Shown one piece after another: positions 17,213 to 17,306 of a DNA stretch of 64,000 nucleotides. Positions within the stretch are counted from its first letter, which is position 1. Each line of letters starts with the position of its first letter. The notes beneath the pieces were generated by a model. The model was not told where the DNA came from, searched no databases, and saw only the letters and a list, made by a program, of their open reading frames with translations. The stretch lies in NCBI RefSeq assembly GCF_024502345.1, contig NZ_JALDNN010000001.1; one strand, written 5' to 3'. This DNA comes from Escherichia coli (GTDB taxonomy: Bacteria; Pseudomonadota; Gammaproteobacteria; Enterobacterales; Enterobacteriaceae). A program made the translations under genes and the position numbers.

Positions 17213-17306
17213 AAAAATCACGCTTCAGGGCTAAGTAAAACGCTGTCTCTGCCGCTAATATGGTAGGGTTTATATAAGAGACAGCGTAATCAGGAGTAAC
17301 CGACCG

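Follow-up and report, generated by a model that had tools for sequence, protein, structure and literature searches.

A perfect inverted repeat between ldcA and cvrA of Escherichia coli probably forms a stem-loop that defines or protects the 3' end of the ldcA mRNA, and this stem-loop overlaps the promoter of cvrA. We analyzed the repeat within a 64,000-nt stretch of E. coli DNA (from contig NZ_JALDNN010000001.1; hereafter, the window). Positions are those of the window, and features lie on its plus strand unless stated otherwise. The arms, ACGCTGTCTCT (17240..17250) and AGAGACAGCGT (17277..17287), are 100% complementary and 26 nt apart, as the preliminary description had it. They lie between the stop codon of ldcA (17210-17212) and the TTG start codon of cvrA (17307), in an intergenic region of 94 nt. 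The stem contains six G-C pairs and cannot be extended in the window sequence: on the outside, A17239 is opposite A17288, and on the inside, G17251 is opposite A17276. The upstream gene, ldcA (16298..17212; 304 amino acids, from the list of open reading frames and the RefSeq annotation of identical E. coli DNA), encodes a peptidoglycan-recycling carboxypeptidase, and its transcript carries the hairpin; its published transcription start (SMRT-Cappable-seq; NC_000913.3 position 1243110) corresponds to 16268. The downstream gene, cvrA (17307..19043; 578 amino acids), encodes a K+/H+ antiporter. As read from the sequence, its Shine-Dalgarno is AGGAG (17292..17296), 10 nt 5' of the TTG, and the GGAG is invariant in our alignments. 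The E. coli stem ends 4 nt before the Shine-Dalgarno and leaves it uncovered. RefSeq annotates no feature at the repeat.

A single 11-mer repeat is, by itself, moderately or mildly improbable at most: the window contains 6 distinct sites with perfect inverted repeats of at least 11 nt and a spacer of 3-40 nt, as compared to 0.83 register-hits expected from dinucleotide shuffles. RNA folding, as the preliminary description had envisaged, gave a stable structure: the predicted fold of 17236-17291 has an energy of -21.9 kcal/mol, as compared to -9.5 +/- 2.5 kcal/mol for shuffled sequences (z = -4.9), and none of 200 shuffles was as stable. What takes the repeat beyond chance is its conservation together with compensatory change (see below).

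Published data place a transcript end at the repeat, which is where the preliminary description had suggested that one might be found. In SMRT-Cappable-seq data (Yan et al. 2018, Supplementary Data 1), monocistronic ldcA transcripts end at 17292 (NC_000913.3 1242086). This is 5 nt beyond the stem in both media, with no U-tract following, and Yan et al. labeled it a "novel TTS." Of 55 reads from the ldcA start in M9 medium, 17 end at 17292, 3 stop up to 50 nt further downstream, and 12 continue as read-through; the corresponding numbers in rich medium are 13, 15, and 0 (of 35 reads). The end at 17292 is thus supported by few reads (13-17), and an ldcA-cvrA read-through unit was also recorded in these data. 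We converted coordinates with c = 1259378 - x, which we obtained by using the sequence given with one row of the Term-seq table, and the SMRT-Cappable-seq and Term-seq coordinates agree to within 1 nt on known terminators. The ends reported from Term-seq (Adams et al. 2021) do not include one at 17292. Their Supplementary file 1 includes an RNA 3' end at 17320 (NC_000913.3 1242058, minus strand), which is 13 nt inside cvrA, and their Supplementary file 2, on Rho-dependent regions, has no entry here on this strand. Position 17320 is at the upstream edge of a C-rich and G-poor stretch (17320-17397; C = 20, G = 9, C/G = 2.2). The supplements of Cappable-seq 2016, the operon-decay paper, and the 3'-UTR valve paper do not include an entry for this locus. 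The Term-seq rows neighboring 17320 include similar ends 12-13 nt into nhaA, wzzB, and ygdG; ends of this type may reflect protection by initiating ribosomes or early termination.

In the explanation that we favor, polymerase from the ldcA promoter would transcribe both arms, and the 11-bp stem would form in the 3' UTR of ldcA, where it would mark the point, a few nucleotides beyond, at which the monocistronic message ends. Transcription would stop slightly further on, in the C-rich beginning of cvrA, and 3'-to-5' exonucleases would then trim the RNA back until they are blocked by the stem. Alternatively, the hairpin might lead to weak termination directly. Since there is no U-tract after the stem (the next 8 nt, AAUCAGGA, include one U), stopping and then trimming seems the most likely route. 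We infer both that the stem causes the end at 17292 and how that end arises. Dar and Sorek described similar structures at the ends of Rho-dependent transcripts: a stem-loop that is stable but is not followed by a U-tract, with the end immediately downstream and a rut site just beyond, in which the stem protects against PNPase and RNase II. The ldcA transcript matches this description, as it has a stable stem without a uridine-rich tract at the transcript end, the 3' end directly downstream at +5, and C-rich, G-poor sequence beyond. By analogy, the ldcA hairpin would be a protective stem-loop. Unlike those stem-loops, it has an unusually long loop (26 nt), within which the next gene has a working promoter and its start site.

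The repeat also resembles an intrinsic terminator, in that a gene is followed by a G-C-containing stem, with a transcript end just beyond it. However, neither the short loop (about 3-8 nt) nor the U-tract of an intrinsic terminator is present, and the end, which is in a non-U context, is 5 nt away from the stem. A terminator scan did not call the 11-bp stem; its only call was a weak inner hairpin (17247-17268), and such hairpins are called at the rate expected by chance. The preliminary description had proposed an unusual long-loop terminator or attenuator: a hairpin at a transcript end is favored by the 3' end 5 nt past the right arm and by the covarying arms (see below), but a canonical intrinsic terminator is not. 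It had also proposed a small structured RNA element, and this idea did not hold up: covariance models from Rfam gave zero matches within 16800-17800 on either strand, even at a permissive threshold (up to E = 10), and we saw no evidence of a separate small RNA. REP/BIME elements are similar in being short intergenic palindromes that lie between genes on the same strand and can stabilize the upstream mRNA, but the ldcA-cvrA repeat is present in a single copy and has no family members. Some other genera have inserted GC-rich hairpins here instead.

What the preliminary description took for a 26-nt spacer is the promoter of cvrA, a point that it missed. The loop (17251..17276) holds the -10 element of a FliA motif (discussed below), a TAATAT hexamer (17256-17261, from the sequence), the extended -10 element TGGTAGGGT (17261..17269), and the start site of cvrA. 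SMRT-Cappable-seq (Yan et al. 2018, Supplementary Data 2) placed this start site at NC_000913.3 1242102 (minus strand), which is 17276, one nucleotide 5' of the right arm. Relative to the start site, the left arm spans -36 to -26, and the right arm is +2 to +12 of the cvrA mRNA. The extended -10 element reads TGgTAGGGT and is 7 nt 5' of the start site, so that the TGn, the TAnnnT, and the distance of about 7 nt that characterize extended -10 promoters for sigma-70 are all found at 17261-17269. TGgTAGGGT presumably works as the cvrA promoter, and TGnTAnnnT is retained in nearly all of the short-spacer orthologues. A scan for promoters and terminators found no consensus two-hexamer promoter for sigma-70 in the intergenic region; a predicted promoter, cvrAp6, is listed in the literature. 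Because cvrA transcription starts inside the repeat, cvrA's own mRNA includes the right arm but not the left one, which makes the hairpin impossible there. The arms sit in the least constrained parts of the promoter, namely, the spacer or -35 region and the initially transcribed bases, which lets one 94-nt intergenic region serve both genes. We rejected a mini-ORF of 5 codons in the loop (MVGFI-stop, from the ATG at 17260), since Citrobacter does not conserve it and it is without a Shine-Dalgarno.

The left arm has another association, with the flagellar sigma factor FliA (sigma-28). Fitzgerald et al. (2014, Table 2) reported a weak FliA ChIP-seq site upstream of cvrA, with the motif TAAGTAAAACGCTGTCTCTGCCGCTAAT and a FAT score of 2. 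Their published sequence is identical to that of the window, where the motif is TAAGTAAA-N11-GCCGCTAA-T (17232..17259). The -10 element, GCCGCTAA (17251-17258), is in the loop, and the left arm coincides exactly with the 11-nt spacer between it and the -35 element, TAAGTAAA. As compared to the FliA consensus (TAAAGTTT-N11-GCCGATAA), the -10 element matches at 7/8 positions, the spacer has the consensus length of 11 nt, and the -35 element matches at about 3/8. The expression of cvrA in E. coli was 43 vs. 28 (normalized), with no significant dependence on FliA (Fitzgerald et al. [quoted passage not shown] A later study ascribed the high activity of a cvrA fusion to a sigma-70 promoter. Thus, the ChIP-seq motif overlaps the repeat and has the left arm as its spacer, but the motif belongs to the DNA around the left arm rather than to the inverted repeat; it is weak, and the expression of cvrA or ycgO showed no dependence on FliA in E. 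coli or Salmonella. Promoter spacers are normally not conserved, and a stem-loop in the ldcA mRNA would explain why the spacer of this motif is. The preliminary description had raised the possibility of a protein-binding site that controls cvrA. This is true incidentally, in that the repeat includes the spacer of a weak FliA motif and encloses the -10 element of cvrA, but we saw no sign that the repeat itself is an operator.

Within E. coli, the repeat is nearly invariant. A 321-nt query over the site matched 5,422 of 5,426 complete genomes, at genes annotated as ldcA and cvrA, and the window is E. coli chromosome. A 64-nt query around the repeat found just one place per genome in 5,422 genomes, even at E <= 10. 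Of 5,424 complete E. coli records, 4,839 are identical over the 64 nt, and another 553 have the variant A17275C, by which the stem gains a G-C pair and reaches 12 bp. Overall, a perfect stem of at least 11 bp is present in 5,392 of the 5,424 records (99.4%), and only about 30 records have any other 64-nt sequence. One of the strains that we sampled (L081) has a single C.A mismatch.

Two other observations were made in these genomes. First, cvrA is labeled a pseudogene, with the C-terminus missing (1,671 vs. 1,737 nt), in the three sampled strains that have the variant with the 12-bp stem, and in a fourth sampled strain, cvrA is frameshifted (L081-L083 are E. coli AR_451, Ecol_AZ161, and E12; L084 is B1.H1.18). 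The decay of cvrA may be under way in some E. coli lineages. Second, 12 matches to the ldcA-cvrA junction are on records that are labeled as plasmids, and a few genomes contain two copies.

We then compared the ldcA-cvrA junction across 80 species of enterobacteria by extracting the intergenic regions and aligning about 64 distinct orthologous regions. The most conserved part of the intergenic region is the loop (...CGTTAATATGnTAGGGTTTTA...), not the arms. The arms vary in step: they are CTGTCTC/GAGACAG in E. coli, CTGTTTC/GAAACAG in the Citrobacter freundii complex (with a U.G intermediate in two cryptic lineages of Escherichia), CTGTGA/TCACAG in Silvania, CTGTATCTG/CAGATACAG in Enterobacter soli, and AACGCTGTT/AACAGCGTT in the Enterobacter cloacae complex, which also has an outer helix (CCNCCTCAAT/ATTGAGGTGG). 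The Klebsiella oxytoca group has an unrelated pair in the same place (CGGCGT..AGAT/ATCT..ACGCCG). The length of the loop ranges from 26 to 29 nt across clades. When the E. coli structure is placed on an alignment of 19 sequences (alignment A2), pairing holds in 87.7% of cells, and this falls to 34-47% if the partner is shifted by 1-3 columns. For these 19 sequences, the covariation score is 0.166, as compared to 0.063 in shuffles, and none of 500 shuffles reached 0.166. Compensatory changes occur at two stem positions, and one stem pair has five types of pairs (UA, CG, GC, UG, and AU).

As a cross-species control, we asked how often the right flank of another clade pairs better than the native one. 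For Escherichia, this was the case for none of 59 right flanks from other clades, and for most of the E. cloacae complex, it was the case for 0-2 of 55. The signal for the native partner was weaker in Silvania, E. soli, and the K. oxytoca group: the comparison can be made in two directions, and just one of them showed it clearly. Salmonella enterica subsp. arizonae, the Citrobacter amalonaticus group, Raoultella, and more distant genera have no such pairing or a degenerate form of it, so the hairpin is dispensable. The homologous left segment has another partner in Kluyvera, Pseudocitrobacter, and Yokenella, namely, GCGTGAACATTG, whose last bases are the start codon; this hints at an additional or different role in those genera. 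As judged from these alignments, the structure of the hairpin is selected in several lineages. The conservation of the paired arms across the Enterobacteriaceae that the preliminary description had asked about was found in several genera, via compensatory change, and was lost in others. The alignments say little about which strand folds: G.U and A.C cells are nearly balanced (6 vs. 5), and the energies of plus-strand and minus-strand duplexes are mixed. We therefore assigned the hairpin to a strand by using the orientation of the genes and the transcript data.

Another arrangement is seen in genera with long ldcA-cvrA spacers (120-166 nt), including Phytobacter, Kosakonia, Pseudescherichia, and Intestinirhabdus (loci L009-L012, L032, L035, L049, L060, L065, L068, L070, L072, and L077). 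These retain the left-arm region and CTGCCGTTAATAT, and in place of the right arm they have a GC-rich local hairpin, inserted after the promoter core and before the Shine-Dalgarno. The inserted hairpin may take over the function of the long-range stem.

We considered whether the hairpin might instead be a cis-acting regulator in the leader of cvrA. It would be present only in ldcA-cvrA read-through RNA and would alter the access of ribosomes, so that the translation of cvrA would depend on which promoter was used. Messages that start at 17276 lack the left arm, so the leader must have two conformations; an outer helix extends to the Shine-Dalgarno region in the Enterobacter and Klebsiella groups; and in the Kluyvera read-through RNAs, where the left segment can pair with the start codon (as it can in Pseudocitrobacter and Yokenella), the start codon is predicted to become less accessible. 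However, the predicted effects on the ribosome-binding region do not have a consistent direction across clades: read-through RNA opens up a little in Escherichia, Citrobacter, and Lelliottia (by +0.09 to +0.17 in unpaired probability), is more closed in Kluyvera and Pluralibacter (by -0.14 to -0.21), and is within 0.03 of no change in Silvania, the K. oxytoca group, and E. soli. Also, the E. coli stem stops short of the Shine-Dalgarno. Because of the inconsistent direction, we demoted translational masking to an alternative explanation, and a possible but doubtful one.

It also seems unlikely that the repeat has no function of its own, either as a chance palindrome on top of conserved promoter sequence or as a canonical intrinsic terminator or attenuator. 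One inverted repeat of 11-mers per 64 kb is close to what chance would give, the promoter accounts for the conservation of the loop, and pairing has been lost in some lineages. But chance does not readily account for the compensatory changes at two stem positions, for the clade-specific re-pairing, for the perfect stem of at least 11 bp in 99.4% of E. coli records, or for the transcript end at +5. As for a canonical terminator, the 26-nt loop, the missing U-tract, and the failure of the scan to call the 11-bp stem all argue against it.

More improbable is that the arms act as DNA, as the half-sites of a dimeric regulator that clamps the cvrA promoter at -36..-26 and +2..+12. The arms do flank the promoter core symmetrically, half-sites that change together would resemble covariation, and the counts of G.U and A.C cells do not favor RNA. 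However, 37 bp (about 3.5 helical turns) separate the centers of the arms, and the length of the loop varies among clades. In other genera, the 3' partner shifts position, even to beyond the Shine-Dalgarno, and the arms of E. coli, Klebsiella, and Kluyvera have wholly different sequences, which is expected for RNA pairing but not for a protein site with fixed geometry. Furthermore, there is no known regulator of cvrA, and a transcript ends at the base of the stem. Finally, the repeat could be what is left of a small mobile element, be it a miniature inverted-repeat element, the end of an insertion sequence, or a REP-like repeat. In favor of such an origin are its shape, which is like that of terminal inverted repeats, and a match to 12 of the 19 bases of the Tn5 mosaic end, but we rejected it on account of the single copy per E. 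coli genome and the same syntenic position across genera, and there is no target-site duplication.

The match to the Tn5 mosaic end is on the minus strand at 17273-17284 (CTGTCTCTTATA), and this sequence occurs just once in the window. By our estimate, a 12-mer would match by chance about 0.5 times per E. coli genome, and the likeness is probably a chance match. CTGTCTCTTATA is also the 12-nt prefix of the Tn5 mosaic end, or Nextera adapter, that is used by common read trimmers, and adapter trimming could clip reads that cross the ldcA-cvrA locus.

A protecting or end-defining stem-loop at the end of ldcA would explain how two neighboring genes of one strand, with a spacer of just 94 nt, can be transcribed as units that are largely independent, and it would give a sequence-level reason for the "novel" transcript end in the published E. 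coli data. This should be useful for annotation and for engineering or deletions here; in particular, mutations in the arms will also strike the cvrA promoter. A more ambitious and rather speculative interpretation is that the region is a selected dual-use module. The unconstrained bases of the promoter would be held complementary so that only transcripts from ldcA fold, which would insulate cvrA (by forming a 3' end in Escherichia, or by masking the start codon in the Kluyvera-type genera) and would tie the output of cvrA to its own, possibly FliA-assisted, promoter. If so, it would be a promoter-in-a-loop insulator whose logic was kept while the 3' partner moved between genera. The stem-loop at the end of ldcA, as we favor it, is a neat but ordinary and unsurprising piece of gene punctuation and does not open a new question. 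Its components are already in published genome-wide tables; we found no description of the hairpin itself in the literature.

Two other repeats in the window have more familiar forms. First, at 36982-37007 (plus strand), a perfect 11-bp stem with a 4-nt loop is followed by TTTTT (CAAGGCAGAGTTATCTCTGCCTTGAGTTTTT), which is a canonical intrinsic terminator, and the same sequence is also in a row for a Term-seq 3' end (Adams et al. 2021). Second, at 49000-49070, inverted arms of 15-16 bp (CCTTATCGTGCCTACA ... TGTAGGCACGATAAG) lie beside GCCGGATG-type sequence, and this region looks like a REP/BIME element, as judged from its sequence.
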